Below, one piece after another: positions 2,793-39,966 of a stretch of 40,884 bases of DNA (positions within the stretch are counted from its first letter, which is position 1; every line of letters starts with the position of its first letter). The position numbers were made by a program, and so were the translations under genes. This DNA comes from a virus. The stretch lies in the UHGV virus genome UHGV-2008032. The stretch is one strand, 5' to 3'. Below the pieces are notes generated by a model. It saw only the letters and a list, made by a program, of their open reading frames with translations, searched no databases and was not told where the DNA came from.

Positions 2793-3956
2793 TCACGCGA
2801 TATTCACCAGTTCAGCAAAAGCGCCTTGTGCCATATTTGTGCCATTCCCCGCCAGAAATGAGTCGATTTGCATGGCATGCTGCGTCAGGTGATTCGGTGC
2901 CAGATGGGCATAACGCTGTACCATCTCGATACTTTCCCACCCGCCCATTTCCTGTAGCGCACTGAGTGGCACGCCGGACTGTACAAGCCAGCTTGCCCAG
3001 GTGTGCCGCAGGTCATGGAAGCGGAAATTTTCTATTCCCGCCCGCCTTAACGCTGCTCGCCATGCCGTGTTAGCATCAGACCGCATTTTGCGCACTGCCT
3101 TTGTTCTCGTTCCATCCGGGCGAACGGATGATTCAGTGTGAACAAAGACCCACCGGTTATGTTTCCCCAGCTGCTCCCGCAGCACCTTACAGGCCGATTC
3201 GTTCAGGGCGACCCCAATCGCCCTTCCTGCTTTCGCGTCCTCGGGGTGAATCCACGCGACCTTCCTCTGCATATCAATTTGTGACCACTCCAGATCGGTG
3301 ATGTTCGACCTGCGCAGCCCCGTCGCCAGTGCAAAAATAACAACTGGCTTCATATGCTCGGGAAGTTCCCGGATCAGGTTCGCCGCTTCCTCTTTGGTTA
3401 GCCAGCGAATACGCTTATTTTTCGGCACCGGGCATTTGATGTTCGGCGCCTTGGCTATCCATCGCCATTCGTTGGCCGCACATCGTAACAGCGCCCGGAT
3501 GAAAGCAAGGTGCGTCGCCTTCGTCGCCAGCGACGCTGGTTTATCCTTAAATTCAGGAACCGGCTTACCTCTTCGCAGCAGGCTGTCCCGTTTCGCCTCC
3601 CAGTTCATTCGATGTTTGCGATTAACCATCGAACTCACCGCCGACAAGATCCTGTCTTCCGTGATTGCTGACAGGTCCATTCCTTTGAAGTGCATTCTCC
3701 AGAATCCGATCCGGCTTTTGTCATCGTCCAGGCTTTTCTTGTGCTGCTTTTCGTTAAGCCAGCGAACGCACGCTTCATCGAACGTTCTCGGCTTAAACTC
3801 ACCCATCTTATCAACTCGCCATGCTTCAGCTTTCAGCTGATCATAGAGCTCCTGCGCTTGCCTTTTGTCCGTTGTCCCAAGAGACCGTCTAATTCGACTT
3901 CCACCAGGCGTAACGAAGTCGCAGTGCCACGTACCGGCACGTTGTTTGATTGACAT
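2793..3956 (-). CDS. int: Tyrosine integrase
   Basis: 387 aa; N-terminal arm-binding-like domain; C-terminal HDLRHTWAS ... VQRYAHL catalytic motifs; adjacent to att core. Confidence 0.9.
2827..2841 (+). repeat. Arm-type repeat TGTGCCATATTTGTG (P' arm, inside int 3' end), tandem with TGTGCCATT
   Basis: Exact copy of 2609..2623 on the other side of the core. Confidence 0.5.
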
Positions 3957-4180
3957 GCTTTAACCTCCTGCACATCAACCGCATTCACCGCGCTATTGTG
4001 TCTCACAGACTTAAGCGCCGCAATGCAGTCTGACTTGCAAATGCGATATGGGCTTTTAGGTTTATCTGGATTTATCTTTGCGGCCTGAAGTCGTCCACTT
4101 CGTATCCACTGCGTGATAGTGCCTTTGTCTACCTTCAGATACGATGCTGCCTCTTCACGAGTGAAGATTTCTTCTTCCAC
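3833..4180 (-). CDS. xis: Excisionase-like HTH DNA-binding protein
   Basis: GTG start at 4180 with GGAG 6 nt upstream; helix-turn-helix [25 protein letters not shown]; 3' end overlaps int start by about 120 nt. Confidence 0.5.
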
Positions 4181-4267
4181 TTGGAATCTCCATTTATTGA
4201 GTTGGTATTATTGCGGTAGGTCTGGATATCTTGAGAAATGAACAGGCCTCATCGAGTGTGAGGCGGG

Positions 4268-4612
4268 TTAGTCCTTGCGTAGCTCGCTAATTCTTCTGTA
4301 AGTCTCTGGTGCTTTGTTTCCGTGTATCTTCATTTCAGACTTCAACAGAGCAACGAGGGAATCCCATTCGTTGAGGATGCCTTTGAATGCCGGAACGCGC
4401 TTTGCAACCTTGTTGAATGAATCTCTGATTTCTGGAATCTGCTCAACAAGTGCAACGCATCGCCGAAAGTCTGCTGCGTCATGGGGAGCACCGAAGTAAT
4501 GACCATAGATATTCTTTTTCAGTCCACATGCGATTGAGGCAAGAGTTGCGCTACTGATGCCAACATCGCCAGTCGATTGCCATTTCAAAACCTTCATAGC
4601 CAAATCTGACAT
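4268..4612 (-). CDS. Hypothetical early protein
   Basis: Start placed at internal ATG 4612 with GGAGA 6 nt upstream; the longer ORF start at 4639 lies inside a terminator stem. Confidence 0.45.
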   Translation of the reverse strand: MSDLAMKVLKWQSTGDVGISSATLASIACGLKKNIYGHYFGAPHDAADFRRCVALVEQIPEIRDSFNKVAKRVPAFKGILNEWDSLVALLKSEMKIHGNKAPETYRRISELRKD

Positions 4613-4624
4613 TTCTTGTCTCCA

Positions 4625-4646
4625 ATAAAAAACCGCCATCAGGCGG
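4625..4646 (-). terminator. Intrinsic terminator within the leftward operon
   Basis: Stem CCGCC/GGCGG with 4-nt loop followed on the minus strand by a U-run (forward A-run 4625-4632). Confidence 0.4.
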
Positions 4647-4712
4647 CTTGGTGTTCTTTCAGTTATTCAATTCGAATATTGGTTACATTGTTTTCATATA
4701 TGAATAAATAAA

Positions 4713-5856: not shown

Positions 5857-6320
5857 TGGTTACCTCCTTTGCGAAGCTCTGCGGCGAACTCGTTAAGTGA
5901 TATGTAGCAATCTCCAAATGTTAACGAACCGCTCGACTGCATATGCTCCATAGCCATCTCCACGCCCTGCGCCCGTACTTCAGCCAGGAAAGCATCGGTG
6001 GCTGGGGTTTCAGTAACATCATCTTCCCATTCGCTAAACTCCTCACGACAAAAGTCATTAAATTCCTTCTCAGATTGCTTAAGCGAGGTATTTTCAGCAG
6101 CCATCTTCGCGCATTTAGCCTCAAGGTTATCAATCGTGATTCCAGCAGAACGACACTCCCGCAACGCCGTTTCTAGTTTTGATTCAAGTTCACCGAACTT
6201 ACGCACCAGATATTCAGCGTTTGTTTCGTTAACCTTTAAATCTCGGGGGATGCATTTACCTTTCAGAAAACCATCCATCTCAATTAGTGACATTTGTTTC
6301 ATTTCTTCCCACTCCGCCAC
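5853..6320 (-). CDS. Hypothetical early protein (coiled-coil-like)
   Basis: 155-aa ORF in the leftward operon with 4-nt overlap to the downstream gene. Confidence 0.4.
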   Translation of the reverse strand: MAEWEEMKQMSLIEMDGFLKGKCIPRDLKVNETNAEYLVRKFGELESKLETALRECRSAGITIDNLEAKCAKMAAENTSLKQSEKEFNDFCREEFSEWEDDVTETPATDAFLAEVRAQGVEMAMEHMQSSGSLTFGDCYISLNEFAAELRKGGNQ

Positions 6321-7585: not shown

Positions 7586-8293
7586 TTATGCCGCCTGTTT
7601 TAGTTCGTTAACTCTGATGTTCATTACCTGAACGCATTTAGCCTGCGCATCCTCATTGCCAGCCATTAATTGCCAGTCATGCTGATAACGTTCTATGAGT
7701 TTTTTCTTGTCAGTTTCTGTTGATGCATAATCGCTGAAGTCTTTCAGGATTTGTTCGCAGTCAACCGATGGAGATTTCTGGTTGGTATTTTCTGGTGATG
7801 GTTTGTTATCTGATGCTGGGATTGCCCAGCCCGGCAGCGATGGAGGGAGCCAGTAAAATCCTGTTCCATCCTTCAGTTTTGCCCTGTGCCACCCCTGTTT
7901 TTTATCGGGAGATGTTTGTGCGAAACCTTCCTCAAGGTTATACAGATACCGACCGATTCCCCACTGAACGGCAGCGCGCTTCATTGCACCGGAACGACCA
8001 CCTTTGACGGCTTCTACCTGCGTGTTTTCAGCAGCATCCCATTTGGTTACCCATTCGGAATCAATCTTTATTGATATGCCGCATTCAACGCCGCCGTTGT
8101 TGGGAATATCGCGGTATTCATTGCGCCATCCTGCTTTGCCACAAACATCGTCAAGGCGTTTCATGATTGCCCGGTTCGTAACATAAGCCAGCACCATAGC
8201 CCACACCTTGCCATCGCGTGTTTTACCGCTTTGCTGTATTCGCCATTCGATATCTTCAGGGCAGAATGGCTCATCGAATTTGTTCAAATCCAT
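7586..8293 (-). CDS. Single-strand annealing recombinase, Rad52/Sak-like
   Basis: Motifs ...GKAGWRNEY...SGAMKRAAVQWGIGRYLY resemble Rad52-family annealing proteins; immediately upstream of ssb. Confidence 0.55.
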   Translation of the reverse strand: MDLNKFDEPFCPEDIEWRIQQSGKTRDGKVWAMVLAYVTNRAIMKRLDDVCGKAGWRNEYRDIPNNGGVECGISIKIDSEWVTKWDAAENTQVEAVKGGRSGAMKRAAVQWGIGRYLYNLEEGFAQTSPDKKQGWHRAKLKDGTGFYWLPPSLPGWAIPASDNKPSPENTNQKSPSVDCEQILKDFSDYASTETDKKKLIERYQHDWQLMAGNEDAQAKCVQVMNIRVNELKQAA

Positions 8294-8392
8294 AATTCAC
8301 CTCAGAATGGACATGGCCCAAGGAAATAACGCTGGTTTAATACTTCGACTCGGGACAAATTAAGGCATACCCGCATTCCTTCGCGGTCACCA

Positions 8393-8551
8393 TTATGGCG
8401 ATACCAGAGAGCTTTCTGCGTGTACATGCGTCTCTGTAACTTGCTCTCCTTCACTGTGGTTGCAAGTGACATGAATATCTCCTTCGTTACCGATTAATTC
8501 TTTCATCTGACGAATGAATTCTTCGTCTGACCAGTTATCTGTAAAACTCAT
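8393..8551 (-). CDS. Small hypothetical protein (52 aa)
   Basis: Hand-translated; ATG overlaps upstream stop (ATGA); below the ORF-track size cut-off. Confidence 0.3.
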   Translation of the reverse strand: MSFTDNWSDEEFIRQMKELIGNEGDIHVTCNHSEGEQVTETHVHAESSLVSP

Positions 8552-8700
8552 TTCCTGCGATACCACGGAATGTTGATCGCTGATTTCATCGCTTTATTTG
8601 CTTCAAGCCACATTTTGGAATCACCAATAAATCTGGCTATTACTGCTTTGTTCTGTGCAGCACGAAGCATCTGGTGATTGATGGCTATTTCATTGCGCAT
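8548..8700 (-). CDS. Small hypothetical protein (50 aa)
   Basis: Hand-translated; GGAGG upstream; stop overlaps next start (ATGA). Confidence 0.3.
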   Translation of the reverse strand: MRNEIAINHQMLRAAQNKAVIARFIGDSKMWLEANKAMKSAINIPWYRRK

Positions 8701-8819
8701 AACGCCTCCAGTTGTTTCTTTGCTGCTCTGATTAATTGTTTAACTCGGCGTGATAATTCAGATTCGTGCGGGTAGAAAGCGGACATGACGCCGCTACCCG
8801 CGAGCTGAAAGTGCATCAT
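8685..8819 (-). CDS. Small hypothetical protein (44 aa)
   Basis: Hand-translated; AGGAG 6 nt upstream of ATG. Confidence 0.3.
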   Translation of the reverse strand: MMHFQLAGSGVMSAFYPHESELSRRVKQLIRAAKKQLEALCAMK

Positions 8820-8902
8820 GGGTAACTCCTTATATTTGATTGCATAACGAAAACGCCTCGAGTGAAGCGTTATTGGTATGCGGTAAAGCCGCGCTCAGGC
8901 GG

Positions 8903-9151
8903 CTACTCTATTTCTTCTTCGAATGATTTTATTAGTCGGTCAATAACATCATCCGTTTCAATATCATTTCCGTCTGATTGCTTTAATACATCTATTGATT
9001 CTGCAGCGGTAAATTCCATCGCTGTGAGAAACTCGACAATTGCACACTCAACGACATATCGTTCTTCATCTGTACGACATGAGATAAAAGAGCATTTAAT
9101 TGCTGTTATTACTTTTTGTTTAAGCTCTGCAGGGTAATCAGTTTTTATCAT
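8903..9151 (-). CDS. Small acidic early protein (82 aa)
   Basis: Strongly acidic C-terminal half (...DGNDIETDDVIDRLIKSFEEEIE); first gene after a leftward terminator. Confidence 0.5.
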   Translation of the reverse strand: MIKTDYPAELKQKVITAIKCSFISCRTDEERYVVECAIVEFLTAMEFTAAESIDVLKQSDGNDIETDDVIDRLIKSFEEEIE

Positions 9152-10402: not shown

Positions 10403-11044
10403 TCAGGAGAATTTCATCATCATCTGCACTGCTACGCCGATTATCTTGCAGTTGCCGTCGATTGGGATCAACGGATAGGCAGGGTTAAGCCCTTTCAGGT
10501 ATTTGTTACCGCCATCAATGATTAGCTTCTTGAACGTGGCTTCATTAGCATCTGTCAGCTTCGCAACTACCAGGCTTCCATTAACGGCTTCCTTTCCAGT
10601 GTCGAACAGAACCAGCATACCCTCAGGAACGCTAAGGCCGGTAGGAGCTGTCATTGAGTCGCCCTGAACCCTGAGCCAGAAGGCGTCACCGACAACGTGA
10701 CAATCTGATTCATACCACTCATCCACTGCCTGAGGGTTGTACGGCTCTACGGCCTCACTCCATGCACCTGCGCTAACCCAGCTAATCAACGGAAACTTTT
10801 CCCCTGGCTTGTATTGTCCCTGATAGTTGTCGCCAAAAAGCAGTTCTGCCGGAGCGACACCCAAAGCTTTAGCTATTACCTCTGCGTCATCAACACTAAC
10901 GCTTCTGGTTCCTGATTCATAGTTGCCGATCCGAGATTGTGAAGCCCAGCCGCAAAGCTCCGCAAGAGCCTTCTGTGTAAGCCCTTTATCTTCCCGTAAT
11001 CGCTTGATACGCGCGGCGATAGTTTCTGTTCTGTTCATGCGCAT
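10403..11044 (-). CDS. cI: CI-like repressor (HTH plus LexA-like S24 autopeptidase)
   Basis: N-terminal XRE-type HTH; C-terminal GDSM serine and downstream lysine; divergent from cro; -10-like TATAAA abuts the ATG, so the mRNA may be leaderless. Confidence 0.85.
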   Translation of the reverse strand: MRMNRTETIAARIKRLREDKGLTQKALAELCGWASQSRIGNYESGTRSVSVDDAEVIAKALGVAPAELLFGDNYQGQYKPGEKFPLISWVSAGAWSEAVEPYNPQAVDEWYESDCHVVGDAFWLRVQGDSMTAPTGLSVPEGMLVLFDTGKEAVNGSLVVAKLTDANEATFKKLIIDGGNKYLKGLNPAYPLIPIDGNCKIIGVAVQMMMKFS

Positions 11045-16681: not shown

Positions 16682-16863
16682 ACGCCACAATTCAAACGAT
16701 ACCAGAGCTTCTTATCCAGACACGAGGCAATCAGACCGAAGTGGCGAGGATGCTTTCCTGTGCAAGAGGAACAGTGCTCAAGTACAACCGAGACAGCAAA
16801 GGTGAGCGTCACGTAATAGTTAACGGCGTCCTGATGGTAACGCCAGGCAAAAAGGGAAGATGA
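16678..16863 (+). CDS. ninH: NinH-like small DNA-binding protein
   Basis: ...YGNQTEVARMLSCARGTVLKY... matches the lambda NinH pattern. Confidence 0.6.
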   Translation: MNATIQTIPELLIQTRGNQTEVARMLSCARGTVLKYNRDSKGERHVIVNGVLMVTPGKKGR

Positions 16864-17381
16864 TGAGCATAAGAGAACTAAACCTCACCAAAGAACAGCA
16901 CGATTGGCTGAATTGCTGGCTTGAACTGTGGGGCGCATGGGTTTATTCAGGTCGTCTGGAAAAGCGCATGAGCAGCGTAATAGCGAAGTTCATGGAGAGC
17001 GTAGAGCCGGGAAGAGTTATGACAAGGCCAATGTGCAATGATGATGATGGAATGTTGATTTCTCAGGTCGTCGATTCCGTCATGTACATTGACAAGAAAG
17101 CCTTTGGCATCCTCCTCAGCTACTACGCTCATGGTTCATCTAAGCGAGCAATTGCATCCTACTATCACGCGACTGCAAAGCCACGCAAGATGTGTGGACG
17201 TGGTGGCGAGGGATGGAGAAAACCTTCACTGGCAACCTGTAGAAACGAAATTGACGACATCCTGAAAGCGTCGTTATTTGTTTTGTACCAGCCAATGCAA
17301 AATGCTTTCAAAATGCGTAAACGTGTTGAGAAAGTTAAGCATGTTGCTGTTAAAAGCCTTGACATGCAATTATCCATTTAG
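16860..17381 (+). CDS. Late-gene antiterminator Q-like protein
   Basis: Last gene of the nin region; ...WGAW...RPMCNDDDGMLI... pattern resembles Q-family proteins; followed by a strong promoter. Confidence 0.6.
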   Translation: MMSIRELNLTKEQHDWLNCWLELWGAWVYSGRLEKRMSSVIAKFMESVEPGRVMTRPMCNDDDGMLISQVVDSVMYIDKKAFGILLSYYAHGSSKRAIASYYHATAKPRKMCGRGGEGWRKPSLATCRNEIDDILKASLFVLYQPMQNAFKMRKRVEKVKHVAVKSLDMQLSI

Positions 17382-34146: not shown

Positions 34147-34334
34147 CCTTCAACAGCCTGCCGGGCGGTGAAGATTTTATTCTTCGTCCGGCGCTTGCCT
34201 TCCAGATTGACCAGAAAGACCTTAACAGCGGTGCGGTAGACCTCTGCCGCATCGCGCTTCTCAATGACTACCTCGACATGCGCGAGGATAACGACGCCCG
34301 GGTAGATAAATGGAGAGCGGCCAATGAGCGGTAA
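34095..34334 (+). other. Programmed -1 frameshift site T_TTT_TTG and -1 frame extension of the tail chaperone
   Basis: Heptamer 34095..34101 in the zero frame (aaT TTT TTG); -1 frame is open from there to TAA 34332..34334, which overlaps the tape measure start. Confidence 0.55.
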
Positions 34335-36339
34335 CGCAGATACGATTAAAGATTTCCTTGTTTCGCTGGGATTCGATATCGATCAGGCTGGCGCTAATAA
34401 GTTTGAAGCCGTGCTGAAAGGCGTTACCGCGAACGTTCTGAAGGTCGGCGCGGTGGTGAAAGGCGCAGCGCTGAGCATTGTCGGATTTACCACCCAGATC
34501 GCGAATGGTCTGGATAAAATTTACTGGGCATCCCAGCGGACGGGGGCCAGCGTCCAGGGCATCAAAGCGCTGGGCTATGCCGCATCGCAAACTGGCGCCA
34601 GCGCTGAGTCGGCCATGTCCTCCCTCGAAGGGTTGGCTGGCTTCATGCGTAGCAATCCGGGGGCGGAAGGGTTCCTGAACCGTCTTGGTGTCCAGACCCG
34701 CGATGCCAGCGGAAAGATGCGTGATACTGCTGCCATCTTTACTGGCGTTGGGCAAAAGCTCAACAACATGCCGTATTACCGCGCGAAGCAATACGCGCAG
34801 ATGCTCGGCATCGATGAAAACACGCTGATGGCGATGCGCAGAGGGATGGGGCAGCTCAGTTCTGAGTACGCGTTGACGGCAAAGCGTATTGGTTTTAATG
34901 CTGAGTCAGCGGCTAAACAGTCCAATATTTTCATGACCTCCATGCGTAATCTGACGATGACGCTTGGACAGGCGAAAGACAAGATTGGCTCTAACCTAGC
35001 TGGTGGCCTTGCTGGCAGCATTGATAACTTCCGCAGGCAGATACTCGACAACTGGCCGAAGATTGAAGCGGTCATCACGAAGATCATCAAAGGAATTCTC
35101 TGGGCAGGTGACGCGATTACCCGCGTGTTATGGCGAACTGGGCAAGCTGTTGAGGGTGTGATCGCCTGGTTCAAAAAGCTGAACCCAGCCACGCAGCAGC
35201 TTATCGCATTGTTCAGTGGGCTGTTGGTTGCATGGCGGCTGCTAAATACCGCTTTCATGTCATCACCCTTGGGCATGATAACGACGCTTATTATTGCACT
35301 TGGTCTGCTCTTTGATGATTACCAGACGTGGAAAGAAGGTGGCAAAAGCCTGATTGACTGGGGGAAATGGAAGACTGAAATTGATCAGGCCGTCAAAATG
35401 ATTGGTGACCTGAAAAAGACTGTTACGGACCTGACAAAAGCGCTGGCTAAGTTGCTCGGTATTGACCCCAAGTCATGGTCCCTAAAGTGGGATTTTAGCA
35501 ACTTCATTTCGCAAATGGGTGAGTTCGGCAAGATGCTGAACATGATCGCCGACCTGCTCAACGCCATTAAAGATGGCCGCTGGGCTGATGCCGCCAGCAT
35601 CGGCAAACAGATGCTTAATCAGGGCAGCGAAAATCCGTCAGCGATGCCGATGGTAACAGACAGCGCCAACGGAACCGCCGACTGGATTAAAGAGCACTGG
35701 GGATTCGATCCTCGCAGCGTGGGCCGAACGGTGCGCGGCTGGTTCGGTGATGATGAGCCTGAACAGCTCGGCCAGTCAGTTAAGCGGCCACAGCCAACCA
35801 AAGCAGGCTCTGAACTGCTGGGATGGATGCAGCCGATGTTTACCAACCTGGAACAGCTCTACCGGCTTCCGGAGGGGTTATTGCGCAGCGTGGCCATAAC
35901 GGAATCGGGCGGTAATCAGTTCGCCGTTTCAGGCGCTGGCGCGAAAGGTCTGTTTCAGTTTATGGATGGCACGGCGCGCGACATGGGCCTGCGTGGCAAT
36001 GATGTATTCGACCCGGAAAAGTCAGCTCAGGCAGCCGCTAAGTACCTCAGCCAGCTGTTGCGGCAGAACGGCGGAGACCTTAGCAAAGCACTGGCATCAT
36101 ATAACTGGGGGATCGGGAATGTTAAGCGTTATGGAATGGGGCTAATGCCGCAGGAAACGCGCAACTACATTCCGAAAGTAATGAGCAATATGCCCACCAG
36201 CGCCCCGGTGATTCAGCAGGAAACGAATATTAACATCCACGGTGTTTCCGATCCGCGTGAAGCTGCCCGTTTGACTGTTGACCGTCAAAAGGGCGTGAAT
36301 TCACAGTTAACCCAGCAACTCCCCGCAGGACCGAGATAA
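34324..36339 (+). CDS. Tail tape measure protein with C-terminal lytic transglycosylase-like domain
   Basis: 671 aa; central hydrophobic segments; C-terminal ...ITESGGNQFAVSGAGAKGLFQFMDGTARDMGL...NWGIGN... SLT-like. Confidence 0.75.
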   Translation: MSGNADTIKDFLVSLGFDIDQAGANKFEAVLKGVTANVLKVGAVVKGAALSIVGFTTQIANGLDKIYWASQRTGASVQGIKALGYAASQTGASAESAMSSLEGLAGFMRSNPGAEGFLNRLGVQTRDASGKMRDTAAIFTGVGQKLNNMPYYRAKQYAQMLGIDENTLMAMRRGMGQLSSEYALTAKRIGFNAESAAKQSNIFMTSMRNLTMTLGQAKDKIGSNLAGGLAGSIDNFRRQILDNWPKIEAVITKIIKGILWAGDAITRVLWRTGQAVEGVIAWFKKLNPATQQLIALFSGLLVAWRLLNTAFMSSPLGMITTLIIALGLLFDDYQTWKEGGKSLIDWGKWKTEIDQAVKMIGDLKKTVTDLTKALAKLLGIDPKSWSLKWDFSNFISQMGEFGKMLNMIADLLNAIKDGRWADAASIGKQMLNQGSENPSAMPMVTDSANGTADWIKEHWGFDPRSVGRTVRGWFGDDEPEQLGQSVKRPQPTKAGSELLGWMQPMFTNLEQLYRLPEGLLRSVAITESGGNQFAVSGAGAKGLFQFMDGTARDMGLRGNDVFDPEKSAQAAAKYLSQLLRQNGGDLSKALASYNWGIGNVKRYGMGLMPQETRNYIPKVMSNMPTSAPVIQQETNINIHGVSDPREAARLTVDRQKGVNSQLTQQLPAGPR

Positions 36340-37269: not shown

Positions 37270-38334
37270 ATGTCTCTTAACTGGATGCGCCATTTTGAGT
37301 TGCAGCTGTTGGACCAGAACGGGCAGGGTATTTCCCTGTCTGATTTTAAGGTCACGTTCCAGATCGAGTGGGCAGATACACGCTGGCCGCGCGTGGCAAA
37401 CGTGAAAATTTACAACCTTTCGACCGATACCACGAACAAGATACTGGGGCAGGAATTTGCCAAAATTCGCATCATTGCCGGGTATGACGGTATTGCGCCG
37501 GATGTTGATGCGAGCCAGGTTGGTGTCGCCCGGGAGATTTCACCAGACCAGGTAGGGCAGGTGAACGGTCAGAACTACGGCCTGATATTTGACGGTGATA
37601 TTCGCTTCACCGTCACCGGGAAGGACAACATCACCGATTCCTGGGTGCTGATTCAGGCCATCAGTAACCACGAAGCGTTCCTCTACGCGACTACCATCAC
37701 CACGCTTGCCGCTGGTTATACCGTTGCGGACCTGCACCGGGCGACTATGCAGGATTTCAACGCGTTCGGCGTGACGCAGGGCATTACCGGTGACTTTCCT
37801 GATACCGTGTTTCCTCGTGGCCGTGCGATTTATTCATCCACCCGTAACGTGATGGATAATATTGCTGCGCAGTGCAAAGCGACATGGCAGCTGGTGGATG
37901 GTCAGGTCCAGATGGTGCCGGAGGATAAATATATTCACGAAGCCATTGTGTTGAATGCCGATACTGGCCTGATCGGTATGCCGCAACAAACGATGGGCGG
38001 CGGAGTAAACGTGCGGTGCCTGATAAACCCAAACATCCGTATTAATGGTCTTATCCAGCTCGATCAGGCTTCGGTGTACCGCGCTGCGCTCGGCAATAGC
38101 GAAATCGCTCAGTCGCCCGGGCGTATCACCGAAACGGAAGAGAACGGCAACCGCGTGCTGACAGGTACGACGTCACAGGCTGCCAGCATTGCGACAGATG
38201 GCGTTTATATCGTCAAAGCTATCGACTATACTGGCGACACCAGAGGTCAGGCGTGGTACATGGATTTGATGTGTTTTGCGCGTGGGGCTCGCGAGCTTTA
38301 CAGCCAGAATGCCATGCTGAAAACCAACTATTGA
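37270..38334 (+). CDS. Putative baseplate hub / tail protein, P2 gpD-like
   Basis: 354 aa; size and position after the tape measure gene. Confidence 0.4.
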   Translation: MSLNWMRHFELQLLDQNGQGISLSDFKVTFQIEWADTRWPRVANVKIYNLSTDTTNKILGQEFAKIRIIAGYDGIAPDVDASQVGVAREISPDQVGQVNGQNYGLIFDGDIRFTVTGKDNITDSWVLIQAISNHEAFLYATTITTLAAGYTVADLHRATMQDFNAFGVTQGITGDFPDTVFPRGRAIYSSTRNVMDNIAAQCKATWQLVDGQVQMVPEDKYIHEAIVLNADTGLIGMPQQTMGGGVNVRCLINPNIRINGLIQLDQASVYRAALGNSEIAQSPGRITETEENGNRVLTGTTSQAASIATDGVYIVKAIDYTGDTRGQAWYMDLMCFARGARELYSQNAMLKTNY

Positions 38335-38344
38335 GGTGAATATT

Positions 38345-38689
38345 GTGAAGCGTGTAGCAGCCGTAATTTTTCTGCTGACTTCGTTTTTATCCTTGAGTGC
38401 ATTTGCTGATTCACAATGTGGTAACTACAGGGTGCACTGGGCGGATGATGGGCTTGCAAGAATTAATGGCGCAAAACCAGAAACTCAAAAAATCACTTTT
38501 CTGAAAAAAGAAGGTGATTATAACAATGTAAAATTTGAGTGGGTTGTTGCTACCGATCAACCCGGTCGCTGGGTGGGAATGGAGTTCATTGGGCGCAACG
38601 GAAAAGCCATTCTCAATGTCCAGTGGCTGCAAGCCAGCATGAATGCGCCGCGTCAGTATGCAACATACGACTGCCGAAAAGTAAAATAG
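38345..38689 (+). CDS. Secreted protein (signal peptide, two Cys) within the tail cluster
   Basis: GTG 38345 with GAGGTG 6 nt upstream; MKRVAAVIFLLTSFLSLSAFA then DSQC...; Cys near each end of the mature protein. Confidence 0.5.
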   Translation: MKRVAAVIFLLTSFLSLSAFADSQCGNYRVHWADDGLARINGAKPETQKITFLKKEGDYNNVKFEWVVATDQPGRWVGMEFIGRNGKAILNVQWLQASMNAPRQYATYDCRKVK

Positions 38690-38707
38690 CCCGCCAGATA
38701 GGCGGGC
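38689..38707 (-). terminator. Hairpin between convergent accessory genes (terminator-like for the minus-strand gene)
   Basis: 7-bp stem GCCCGCC/GGCGGGC with loop AGATA; U-rich tract follows on the minus strand. Confidence 0.45.
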
Positions 38708-38712
38708 ATGCG

Positions 38713-39003
38713 TCAAAAATATTGAGCTTTAATTATAATAAACACAATAATTACGAACAGGATGTTTCTAATTATTTTTTGCTTATGAGTAAGTTGTTTT
38801 TTTTCTGTCGATTTCCCGGGAGAGTAAAGGTTAGTGGTATGCGACAGCCCCGTGCCGGGAAGGCCATTTGTCATCTTTACGCCTTTTTTCCCGATGTTAA
38901 TGGTGGAACCTTTACCACCAATTGAAGTGCTTACTCCGCTTTTGCTAATGTTGATCGCGAGTCCGGGCGCAATCCGGATTCTTTTGCGAAATCTAAAGCC
39001 CAT
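38713..39003 (-). CDS. DUF4236-like protein with C-terminal transmembrane helix
   Basis: MGFRFRKRIRIAPGLAINISKSGVSTSIGGKG...GLPGTGLSH signature; C-terminal IIRNILFVIIVFIII; AT-rich context; AGGAG 6 nt upstream of ATG. Confidence 0.55.
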   Translation of the reverse strand: MGFRFRKRIRIAPGLAINISKSGVSTSIGGKGSTINIGKKGVKMTNGLPGTGLSHTTNLYSPGKSTEKKQLTHKQKIIRNILFVIIVFIIIKAQYF

Positions 39004-39191
39004 TTGTTACTCCTGTAGTCAAGAATGCGATGGTGCAGGTCCACTCTATGGCGGCTTCATGGCTGAAATTGATTTTTAATGCTTACTTGTTGCAAATATA
39101 TCCTAATACACCTTGTGAATATGTGCCATTGCAGCGGAAAAGCCTTACTTCACACTGATGTAGCTTAGTTACTAAGAGATAATTGATACCA

Positions 39192-39215
39192 AACCAGCTT
39201 CGGCTGGTTTTTTTA
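39192..39215 (+). terminator. Intrinsic terminator 10 nt upstream of the baseplate spike gene
   Basis: 7-bp stem AACCAGC/GCTGGTT with loop TTCG followed by TTTTTTT. Confidence 0.65.
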
Positions 39216-39225
39216 TGGGGTTTTT

Positions 39226-39966
39226 ATGCCAATTCCTACTCAATCACAGATCGGCGGCGAGCAGCAGACCGCGCAGGCCATTGCCGATTCGGTGTCTACT
39301 CAGATGCGCGTAGCGATGCCTGGCATCATTCAGTCGTTCGATCCTGACGCTGTAACCTGCACAGTAGAGGTGGCGCTTCGCGGTATTGTTGGCGACGACT
39401 CCACCGAATTAAAACCGCTGGTGGATGTGCCTGTCATCTTCCCGCGCGGAGGCGGTTGCACGCTGACCTTTCCGGTAAAAGAAGGCGATGAGTGCCTGCT
39501 GATCTTTGCCGACCGTTGCATCGATTTCTGGTGGCAGAGCGGCGGCGTTCAGGAGACCGTCGACCCGCGCCAGCATGACTTATCTGATGCGTTCGCCATC
39601 GTTGGCCCGCAGTCGCAAGCGCAAAAAATCAGCGGTATCAGTACCAGCGCCGCGCAGCTGCGAACCGATGATGGTGTGGCGTTCGTAGAGGTTTCCGCAG
39701 GACATAACATCACCGTTCAAACACCGGGCCAGCTCACGGCTACGGCTGAAGGTGGAACGACAATCACATCCCCGACTATCACGCTGAACGGCAACGTAAC
39801 GATTAATGGCAATCTGTCTCAGGGAATGGGAGAAAGTGGTGGTACTGCGACGATGCTTGGGCCGGTTACGGTAACGAATGATGTGACAGCTTCAGGTATA
39901 AGTGTCGCCACGCATAAACATGGCGGAGTTCAGACAGGCGGGGGAACTACTGGAGGGCCGCAATAA
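39226..39966 (+). CDS. Baseplate spike protein, P2 gpV-like
   Basis: 246 aa; C-terminal ...VATHKHGGVQTGGGTTGGP; precedes gpW-like and J-like genes. Confidence 0.55.
   Translation: MPIPTQSQIGGEQQTAQAIADSVSTQMRVAMPGIIQSFDPDAVTCTVEVALRGIVGDDSTELKPLVDVPVIFPRGGGCTLTFPVKEGDECLLIFADRCIDFWWQSGGVQETVDPRQHDLSDAFAIVGPQSQAQKISGISTSAAQLRTDDGVAFVEVSAGHNITVQTPGQLTATAEGGTTITSPTITLNGNVTINGNLSQGMGESGGTATMLGPVTVTNDVTASGISVATHKHGGVQTGGGTTGGPQ

Follow-up and report, generated by a model that had tools for sequence, protein, structure and literature searches.

Temperate phages of the P2 and P4 groups reportedly carry hotspots of accessory and defence genes, which Rousset is said to have described in 2022, and gene 15 of phage HK97 was reportedly treated as a moron by Juhala in 2000 and by Cumby in 2012. 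Among the small phage proteins that work at the cell envelope, Spackle (Sp) of T4 is all-alpha and acts in the periplasm as an inhibitor of gp5, the tail lysozyme of a superinfecting phage, and Cor (N15, phi80, HK022) and Llp (T5) are receptor-blocking exclusion lipoproteins. HK97 gene 15, the founding moron, lies between the tail chaperone and tape measure genes and codes for an inner-membrane superinfection-exclusion protein (PMC3594210). The present work concerns a locus in UHGV virus genome UHGV-2008032, a stretch of 40,884 nucleotides (nt) that is referred to in full as the window, where two open reading frames (ORF1 on the plus strand and ORF2 on the minus strand) lie between the genes of the baseplate hub and of the gpV-type baseplate spike. 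Comparison with about 100 related loci, retrieved through homology to ORF1 from complete Escherichia coli genomes, GTDB species representatives (21 loci) and IMG/VR (80 loci), makes it very probable that ORF1 is a resident gene for an exported protein, that ORF2 is variable cargo, and that the locus as a whole is a moron or accessory-gene hotspot.

The hub and spike genes are direct neighbours in other phages. They overlap by 4 nt in Pam3 (gp19 and gp20, respectively, in its record) and abut in the virulent Rosemountvirus birk, with nothing between them in either genome; in the Hafnia phage yong1, whose hub is 65% identical, an unrelated cytoplasmic protein occupies the position of ORF1. A previous model-made reading of the window from its letters, hereafter the sequence-only reading, had taken the two ORFs for non-structural accessory genes inserted into the baseplate cluster. 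ORF1 is absent from all three of these phages, and the junctions of Pam3 and Rosemountvirus birk, together with the many slot contents described below, support that view. The functions that this reading had suggested (superinfection exclusion, envelope modification and host interaction) are candidates that accord with the data. Moreover, neither product resembles a core baseplate component, ORF1 having a signal peptide in addition to this absence and ORF2 being membrane-anchored and variable. One gene is also found between hub and spike in the temperate Burkholderia phage Magia (MT701587.1; locus L112, 2469-2840, minus strand), whose hub is about 30% identical; its product of about 124 amino acids (aa) has a signal peptide and is not detectably related to ORF1, and the junction therefore attracts exported proteins in distant lineages too. 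No relation to ORF1 was detectable for this Magia protein, for the post-hub protein of Pasteurella Pmp2, or for the secreted cargo of types 2 and 12.

In the window, both of the convergent genes that had been placed between gpD-like and gpV-like genes are present, and their flanks were identified as the hub and gpV (Table 1). The longest ORF1 frame starts 1 nt past the hub stop codon, and the favoured start, GTG at 38345, lies 10 nt past it. The interval stands out in its composition: guanine-cytosine (GC) content is 0.427 in 38336-39225 vs a window mean of 0.509 and 0.54-0.57 in the flanks, which places it among the lowest 3.8% of 890-nt windows, with no other such patch in the late-gene half, and GC at third codon positions (GC3) is 0.42 in ORF1 and ORF2 vs 0.64 in the hub gene and 0.58 in gpV. 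These figures bear out the richness in adenine and thymine that had been ascribed to this DNA relative to the tail genes. Conversely, the notion of one island bounded by hairpins holds in part: the two hairpins are real, but they bound the ORF2 cassette (38690-39190) only, with no hairpin at the junction of the hub gene and ORF1, and it is ORF2 with its flanks that forms a swappable cassette, whereas ORF1 is long-resident and lineage-wide. A 42-aa frame (39030-39158) and the frames at 38411-38716 (minus strand) and 38539-38925 (plus strand) lacked support and were treated as spurious. Equally low-GC stretches of the window (890-nt window starts 3991-4671, 6021-6051 and 8211-9101) are confined to the early/regulatory half and may be sites of further accessory genes.

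The DNA between the ORF1 stop codon and the gpV start is a variable slot, whose length ranges between 61 and 1714 nt across the 102 loci used for these counts and whose contents fall into 37 DNA-distinct types. The minus-strand DUF4236 class of the window, one of at least 35 alternative inserts, is the commonest content (19 of the 102) and is absent from the remaining 83; in two loci, from Rahnella and Pantoea, the slot is empty and contains the terminator alone. Other relatives carry Phd/Doc toxin-antitoxin pairs, a pair made of Arc and a P22-type antirepressor, a ClpP-like protein, or EACC1-like minus-strand genes. Many of the cargo proteins are small, secreted or membrane proteins without annotation; most of the alternative cargo has no match in Pfam or PADLOC, and at least one product with a signal peptide or a transmembrane segment is encoded by the slot in 17 of 34 cargo types (66 of 99 loci). 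In many cases, a plus-strand cargo gene begins at most a few nucleotides away from the ORF1 stop codon; such genes would therefore be transcribed together with ORF1 and end at the same terminator. In Erwinia oleae (NZ_JNVB01000022.1; locus L025, 3407-4636), the slot holds a 409-aa homologue of PD-lambda-1, or SNIPE (PADLOC E = 5e-83), with an N-terminal membrane helix and a T5orf172/MUG113 nuclease domain; SNIPE has been demonstrated experimentally to cleave phage DNA during injection (PMC13190303). A recurrent cargo family (Klebsiella phage Mulock, locus L109, 3000-3446; also loci L014 and L024) consists of an N-terminal membrane helix, a basic linker and a cysteine-rich C-terminus that weakly matches Phage_Mu_F (E = 5.6e-5), a Mu-F-like domain on a membrane anchor being unexpected.

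Wherever an ORF1-selected locus has kept a recognisable hub gene (about 100 loci), ORF1 comes directly after it. When near-identical prophages are compared with the window, synonymous divergence (dS) in the hub, gpV and gpW genes is 0.1-0.3 and nonsynonymous divergence (dN) is at most 0.03; in the same prophages, ORF1 has a dS of at least 1 and a dN of 0.15-0.3, with a dN/dS ratio of roughly 0.1-0.2. So high a dS on so uniform a backbone shows that the ORF1 alleles diverged long ago and have been exchanged between backbones through recombination. Selection on the ORF1 protein is purifying, with a conserved C-terminal half, a variable signal peptide and variable first strands, and 20 invariant residues. 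Conflict genes typically show allelic classes that persist for long at one fixed locus, and ORF1 fits this pattern, which is suggestive and not proof. As for the DUF4236 cassette, its DNA is mostly 97-100% identical (about 85% in 2 of 18 cases) where the adjacent ORF1 DNA is only 65-75% identical, and in E. coli it occurs in this slot only, in 19 of the 52 members of the prophage family; together with the variability of the slot, this is why ORF2 is considered exchangeable cargo and ORF1 the resident. In Pseudescherichia vulneris (loci L011/L073, 2293-2849), a duplicated 68-aa fragment of the hub C-terminus and, after it, a second and strongly diverged ORF1 paralogue lie between the first ORF1 and gpV, which suggests unequal recombination of a unit composed of the hub 3' end and ORF1.

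The locus has further hallmarks of a moron. It sits between genes that are adjacent in relatives (Pam3, Rosemountvirus birk and the loci with empty slots), its base composition deviates, and it has its own terminators, one on the minus strand after ORF2 and the other on the plus strand after ORF1 or the cargo. The minus-strand hairpin, with a U-run on that strand only, lies 5 nt past the ORF2 stop codon, overlaps the stop codon of ORF1 and marks the left edge of the cassette. The plus-strand terminator lies directly before the gpV ribosome-binding site and is present with all 37 cargo types, empty slots included; in its alignment, 87.7% of the cells are paired, compensatory changes occur at two pairs, and none of 500 shuffles reaches the covariation score, the window having the variant CCAGC/GCTGG vs CCCGC/GCGGG in most relatives. 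Q-modified polymerase is unaffected by a terminator that lies inside a late operon. From this insensitivity and from the strict conservation of the terminator, it can be inferred that locally initiated, non-Q-modified transcription must be stopped before gpV.

ORF1 codes for a protein of family phrog_3443 (profile match E = 8.9e-46; residues 5-117 against profile positions 2-114 of 115), for which PHROGs annotates no function; Pfam and PADLOC likewise gave none. The GTG codon at 38345 is the likely start, being preceded by a GAGG Shine-Dalgarno sequence 7 nt upstream and being also the start in the RefSeq (PGAP) annotation of the copy in E. coli EC596. The product comprises MKR, a hydrophobic stretch, an AFA/D cleavage motif and a mature part of 93 residues, and it contains exactly two cysteines (C25 and C110), in agreement with the signal-peptide protein with two cysteines foreseen by the sequence-only reading. 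In 31 aligned homologues, the signal-peptide region is variable in sequence and invariably hydrophobic, with the AxA/D motif, and 66 of 68 full-length homologues retain the hydrophobic N-terminus, a small-x-small motif and both cysteines. The family is narrow: it has 76 clusters in 5.8 billion proteins, with named members all from Enterobacterales, and an exhaustive search of 1.84 billion representatives with the hidden Markov model (HMM) of ORF1 yielded 59 hits, including two large repetitive proteins that are apparently spurious low-complexity matches. In Salmonella phage SEN34 (NC_028699.1; locus L111, 2496-2839), gp20 is annotated with 77 aa, and its start is probably placed too far downstream because the in-frame sequence upstream would supply a signal peptide and the N-terminal cysteine of the family. 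In some prophages a longer gene replaces ORF1 (locus L003, E. coli FJ_Ec_21, 1039-1929; also P0079 and P0095) and codes for a lipoprotein (LSGC lipobox) in which an unannotated N-terminal domain of about 190 aa is fused to an ORF1-like barrel; RefSeq labels the FJ_Ec_21 fusion a partial pseudogene. Lastly, Pantoea sp. C3 (NZ_CP173698.1; locus L028, 3989-4339) has an orphan family member of 116 aa (HMM E = 4e-41) amid non-phage chromosomal genes, which hints at a host origin or at a stranded remnant and parallels HK97 gp15 and YebO. The hydrophobic N-terminus with the cysteine pair, the lipoprotein fusions and the chromosomal homologue point to the cell envelope, and not the virion, as the place of ORF1.

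The AlphaFold model of ORF1 (predicted local distance difference test, pLDDT, 81) consists of an N-terminal helix and eight strands, the signal peptide forming a detached helix of low pLDDT. The strands are predicted to form an up-and-down beta-barrel, as in the avidin family, and C25 and C110 fall in strands 1 and 8; since these neighbour each other in such a barrel, a disulfide that closes it is likely in the model. The local motif FIGRNGKAILNVQWL aligns with FIDRNGKEVLKTMWL of avidin at an hhalign probability of 43%, which is not significant at database scale; the hhalign probability against streptavidin is 0.7%, phmmer gives E values of about 1 per avidin, and Pfam Avidin has no match at E <= 10 in any of 31 family members. 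Because the avidin match is not significant and both streptavidin and Pfam Avidin are negative, the fold is named avidin-like only; membership of the avidin family was rejected as unproven. The barrel does raise the alternative that ORF1 binds a small ligand in the periplasm, as avidins or calycins do, and alters host physiology or sequesters a metabolite, a signal or a toxin. This is unlikely, as the similarity to avidin is local, the chain is about 30 residues shorter than that of avidins, the polar biotin-binding residues are not evident, the tryptophan W96 is lost in a whole subfamily, and the deep allelic diversification suits a conflict gene better than it does a metabolite binder.

ORF2 matches DUF4236 (PF14020) over profile positions 1-54 of 55 with E = 1.8e-20 and 73.6 bits vs a cut-off of 27. 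Its hydrophobic helix reaches a 15-residue Kyte-Doolittle maximum of 3.05, starting at residue 77, and AlphaFold (pLDDT 82) models a six-strand beta meander at residues 6-60 and a helix at 73-95, so that the DUF4236-like protein with one C-terminal transmembrane helix that had been proposed from the sequence is corroborated. Residues 1-75 carry a net charge of +13, and a lysine-rich linker joins the domain to the helix. Relatives comprise a protein with DUF4236, a transmembrane helix and SH3b in Vibrio and a DUF4236-FtsK-gamma fusion without the helix; the charge and these architectures suggest that the DUF4236 domain is cytoplasmic and that ORF2 is tail-anchored in the inner membrane. Pfam, PHROGs and PADLOC assign no function to ORF2. 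DUF4236 genes recur within the tail modules of unrelated phages in five settings, namely the same hub-spike slot of Klebsiella Wanchaivirus-like prophages, the interval between gpK and gpI/J in a lambdoid prophage of Pseudomonas syringae, the interval between the tape measure gene and gpM, on the opposite strand, in a lambdoid tail module of Leclercia, the DNA 3' of the hub gene in Pasteurella Pmp2, and the interval between the tail chaperone and tape measure genes of Clostridioides difficile phiCD38-2, which is the position of HK97 gp15.

A small, strongly basic protein with a single membrane helix might also be a membrane-active toxin, that is, an abortive-infection effector or part of an addiction module that kills or arrests the cell when triggered; toxin-antitoxin pairs do occupy the same slot in relatives, and late transcription antisense to ORF2 could regulate it. 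Still, the cassette contains no gene for a partner or antitoxin (its only other frame being the spurious one of 42 aa), ORF2 is stably kept in 19 E. coli genomes with a protein sequence that is 100% conserved, and the occurrence of DUF4236 without a membrane helix or in fusion with SH3b or FtsK-gamma speaks for a binding module more than for a pore former, all of which renders a toxin improbable.

The expression of the unit from the prophage would depend on local promoters. A candidate sigma-70 promoter for ORF1 lies inside the hub 3' end, and in 82 unique hub 3' ends the third-codon positions of its hexamers are the most conserved synonymous sites of the region (GTT in 73/77, TAT in 78/82, TAT in 80/82 and ACT in 81/81), while nearby threonine codons vary freely; these sites are retained in most of the divergent loci. 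The promoter of ORF2 is presumably located in the spacer upstream of it (39004-39190). According to the proposed mechanism, hub and spike would have been contiguous ancestrally, and the enterobacterial lineage would have gained a wedged unit made of promoter, ORF1 and terminator, into which cargo would have been repeatedly inserted or exchanged between the ORF1 stop codon and the terminator, probably through homologous recombination in the conserved 3' half of ORF1 and in the terminator and gpV 5' end. In the lysogen, ORF1 and ORF2 would be transcribed locally from the two strands and transcription would be halted at the two terminators, keeping gpV silent; during lytic growth, Q-modified RNA polymerase would pass both terminators and run antisense over ORF2, probably switching it off. 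ORF1 would be exported by Sec, cleaved after AFA and folded into a small periplasmic eight-stranded barrel, probably stapled by C25-C110. Its place of action would be the periplasm, the compartment in which an incoming tail deploys its spike and its lytic-transglycosylase tape measure, whereas ORF2 would work on the inner side of the membrane, the site of DNA entry.

Overall, a moron locus in the tail operon whose two proteins most likely protect the lysogen at the envelope is the favoured explanation, held with some confidence. Expression of the unit from the prophage is judged slightly more probable than its opposite, and envelope protection against incoming phages is put forward tentatively for ORF1 and for ORF2 alike, the support for exclusion being circumstantial and consisting of the envelope location, a slot shared with SNIPE and the recurrent placement in tail modules. 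A broader joint reading, doubtful in its entirety, is that ORF1 (phrog_3443) founds a new periplasmic anti-phage family and that DUF4236 with its transmembrane helix is a second, widespread module that blocks entry. In this scenario, the avidin-like barrel would intercept the device with which incoming contractile-tail phages puncture the cell, either the spike or the SLT tip of the tape measure; its ancient alleles would be maintained as a balanced set beside the genes of that device, and phages of Gram-negative and Gram-positive hosts would repeatedly plant the DUF4236 membrane protein inside their tail-tip operons.

Several results weigh against protection by a unit expressed from the prophage. 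ORF1 lies 10 nt past the hub stop codon with no terminator between; it is therefore certainly a late gene as well, and a purely protective role in the lysogen accords less well with this. The conserved synonymous sites at the candidate promoter fall in a part of the hub 3' end that is well conserved in general, and the compared sequences lack phylogenetic independence; in the region, promoter-like sites number 2 vs 2.1 expected in shuffles; and manual and automatic searches of 39004-39190 found no convincing promoter for ORF2 and no minus-strand site with 9/12 consensus matches. The distances between ORF1 alleles do not co-vary with those of the tape-measure C-terminus (rho 0.09) and co-vary weakly with those of gpV (rho 0.34), for which physical linkage could account; these distances point to no partner. 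Moreover, neither ORF1 nor ORF2 matches any PADLOC-DB v2 family at E <= 1, full-text literature searches for DUF4236/PF14020 returned no functional data, and no experiment on either protein family was found. In the wider search for a partner, ORF1 alleles did not track the SLT region of the tape measure, Dit, the plug, the hub or gpW. The C-terminal SLT part of the tape measure is itself as variable as ORF1 in near-identical prophages (mean distance 0.21 vs 0.04 for the hub).

The fixed position after the hub, which is strictly kept in the ORF1-selected loci that retain one, and the close packing of the genes could be explained if ORF1 were an assembly or structural factor of the tail or baseplate in this lineage. 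Such a role is very unlikely for a protein with a Sec signal peptide, a conserved cysteine pair and lipoprotein-fused relatives, whose gene is missing from Pam3 and Rosemountvirus, replaced in yong1, swapped allele by allele independently of the hub and gpV, and represented by an orphan homologue in a chromosome. Hardly more credible, in spite of the low GC content and the lack of functional annotation in databases, is tolerated junk, that is, horizontally acquired and functionless ORFs persisting at a permissive site, given the purifying selection on ORF1 across saturated synonymous divergence and the ORF2 frame and DUF4236 motif, which are intact in every one of the 19 copies as well as in homologues throughout Proteobacteria.

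The window is the genome of a temperate phage or prophage, a SEN34-like myovirus that joins lambda-type regulation to a contractile tail of the Pam3/E217 type. It has an S/R/Rz lysis cassette, and its tail module follows the Pam3/E217 layout (tape measure with a C-terminal SLT domain, Dit-like protein, Pam3_gp18 plug, hub, gpV spike and wedge proteins). Citrobacter phage Omnitron is the nearest named phage (88% DNA identity over the region studied). A more distant named relative is Salmonella phage SEN34 of the genus Brunovirus, for which lambda-like regulation and the morphology of a myovirus have been described; literature searches on SEN34 and Brunovirus yielded no functional data. The prophage family is present in 52 of 5426 complete E. 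coli genomes. In the closest copy to the window, that of E. coli EC596 (NZ_CP156718.1; locus L002, 134-2035; 99.4% identical), the hub gene has lost its N-terminal end and adjoins a site-specific integrase gene, so that this prophage must be degraded or interrupted on the upstream side of the slot.

Table 1. Features of the hub-spike locus and of its host phage, with positions in the window.
Feature	Position	Strand	Evidence or detail
Integrase	2793-3956	-	
CI-type S24 repressor	10403-11044	-	
Lambda-type Q antiterminator	16860-17381	+	PF06530, E = 1.4e-25
Tape measure	34324-36339		C-terminal SLT lytic-transglycosylase domain
Baseplate hub, left backbone flank	37270-38334	+	phrog_196 'baseplate hub', E = 6e-84; weak Pfam E217_GP41 match
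Candidate sigma-70 promoter of ORF1, inside hub 3' end	38204-38232	+	-35 TTTATA, 17-nt spacer, -10 TATACT; 9/12 consensus matches
ORF1, exported 114-aa protein, phrog_3443	38345-38689 (longest-ORF start 38336)	+	
Predicted Sec signal peptide of ORF1, MKRVAAVIFLLTSFLSLSAFA then D	38345-38407	+	AxA/D motif, hydrophobic N-terminus
GC-rich hairpin, likely intrinsic terminator of ORF2	38689-38707	-	7 GC pairs; -16.7 kcal/mol, z -4.25
ORF2, 96-aa DUF4236 protein with C-tail anchor, cargo in the window copy	38713-39003	-	
Predicted C-terminal transmembrane helix of ORF2, residues ~74-95	38719-38784	-	Hydropathy and AlphaFold
DUF4236 domain of ORF2, residues 3-55, basic	38839-38997	-	Pfam PF14020
AT-rich spacer upstream of ORF2, GC 0.40	39004-39190	.	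ORF2 Shine-Dalgarno AGGAG at ~39011-39015
Backbone intrinsic terminator, right edge of the slot	39191-39217 (stem-loop 39191-39210, then T7/U7)	+	-11.9 kcal/mol, z -2.2
gpV-type baseplate spike, right backbone flank	39226-39966	+	PF18352, 1.5e-41; GpV Apex motif

If the protective function holds, the SEN34-like hub-spike junction is a compact and easily recognised source of new envelope-level anti-phage genes, in prophages found in some 1% of complete E. coli genomes, and also across Enterobacterales, whose cargo types are mostly unannotated. The slot yields two small and tractable candidates, the 93-residue barrel with its deep allelic diversity and DUF4236, and the locus is a clean example of a moron that grows, within a Q-antiterminated late operon, into an operon framed by a single promoter and a single terminator. 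Should the functional part fail, a well-delimited recombination hotspot would still be at hand, useful for prophage typing. In the searchable literature, no description was found of this hub-spike hotspot, of its resident barrel, of its frame of promoter and terminator or of the two protein families.

The likeness to HK97 gene 15 lies in an extra gene between late tail genes that are adjacent in relatives, in the deviant GC content and in a terminator of its own, and the product of the window cargo, ORF2, is likewise predicted to be a small inner-membrane protein. The two proteins have no sequence relationship, HK97 gp15 belonging to the YebO family and having an N-terminal anchor, whereas ORF2 carries DUF4236 and a C-terminal one; besides, exclusion by HK97 gp15 is known, while the window locus is likened to it from its sequence. 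With the P2/P4 hotspots, the locus shares a fixed position at which unrelated systems alternate among near-identical prophages, PD-lambda-1/SNIPE and toxin-antitoxin pairs included; it differs from them in its site, the hub-spike junction of SEN34-like phages, in the resident ORF1 and the common terminator, and in a cargo of mainly small envelope proteins instead of large cytoplasmic defence systems.

As regards ORF1 itself, Spackle offers a plausible functional analogy because the tape measure of this phage carries an SLT lytic-transglycosylase domain, and both are small periplasmic proteins of contractile-tail phages, ORF1 being predicted to be exported by Sec. However, ORF1 is modelled as an all-beta barrel, has no homology to Spackle and does not co-vary with the tape-measure C-terminus. 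From avidin and streptavidin it is set apart by the lack of a significant match or Pfam hit, by the shorter chain and by biotin-binding residues that are not recognisable. Like Cor and Llp, ORF1 is a small envelope-targeted protein encoded beside tail or adsorption genes and fixed in its lineage, and some of its relatives are lipoprotein fusions; unlike them, it has a signal peptidase I site and no lipobox, and homology is lacking. The locus is thus of a known kind, that of morons and prophage defence hotspots, and what is specific to it is the site, the resident and diverse barrel, the common promoter and terminator, and the two uncharacterised families that it brings together.

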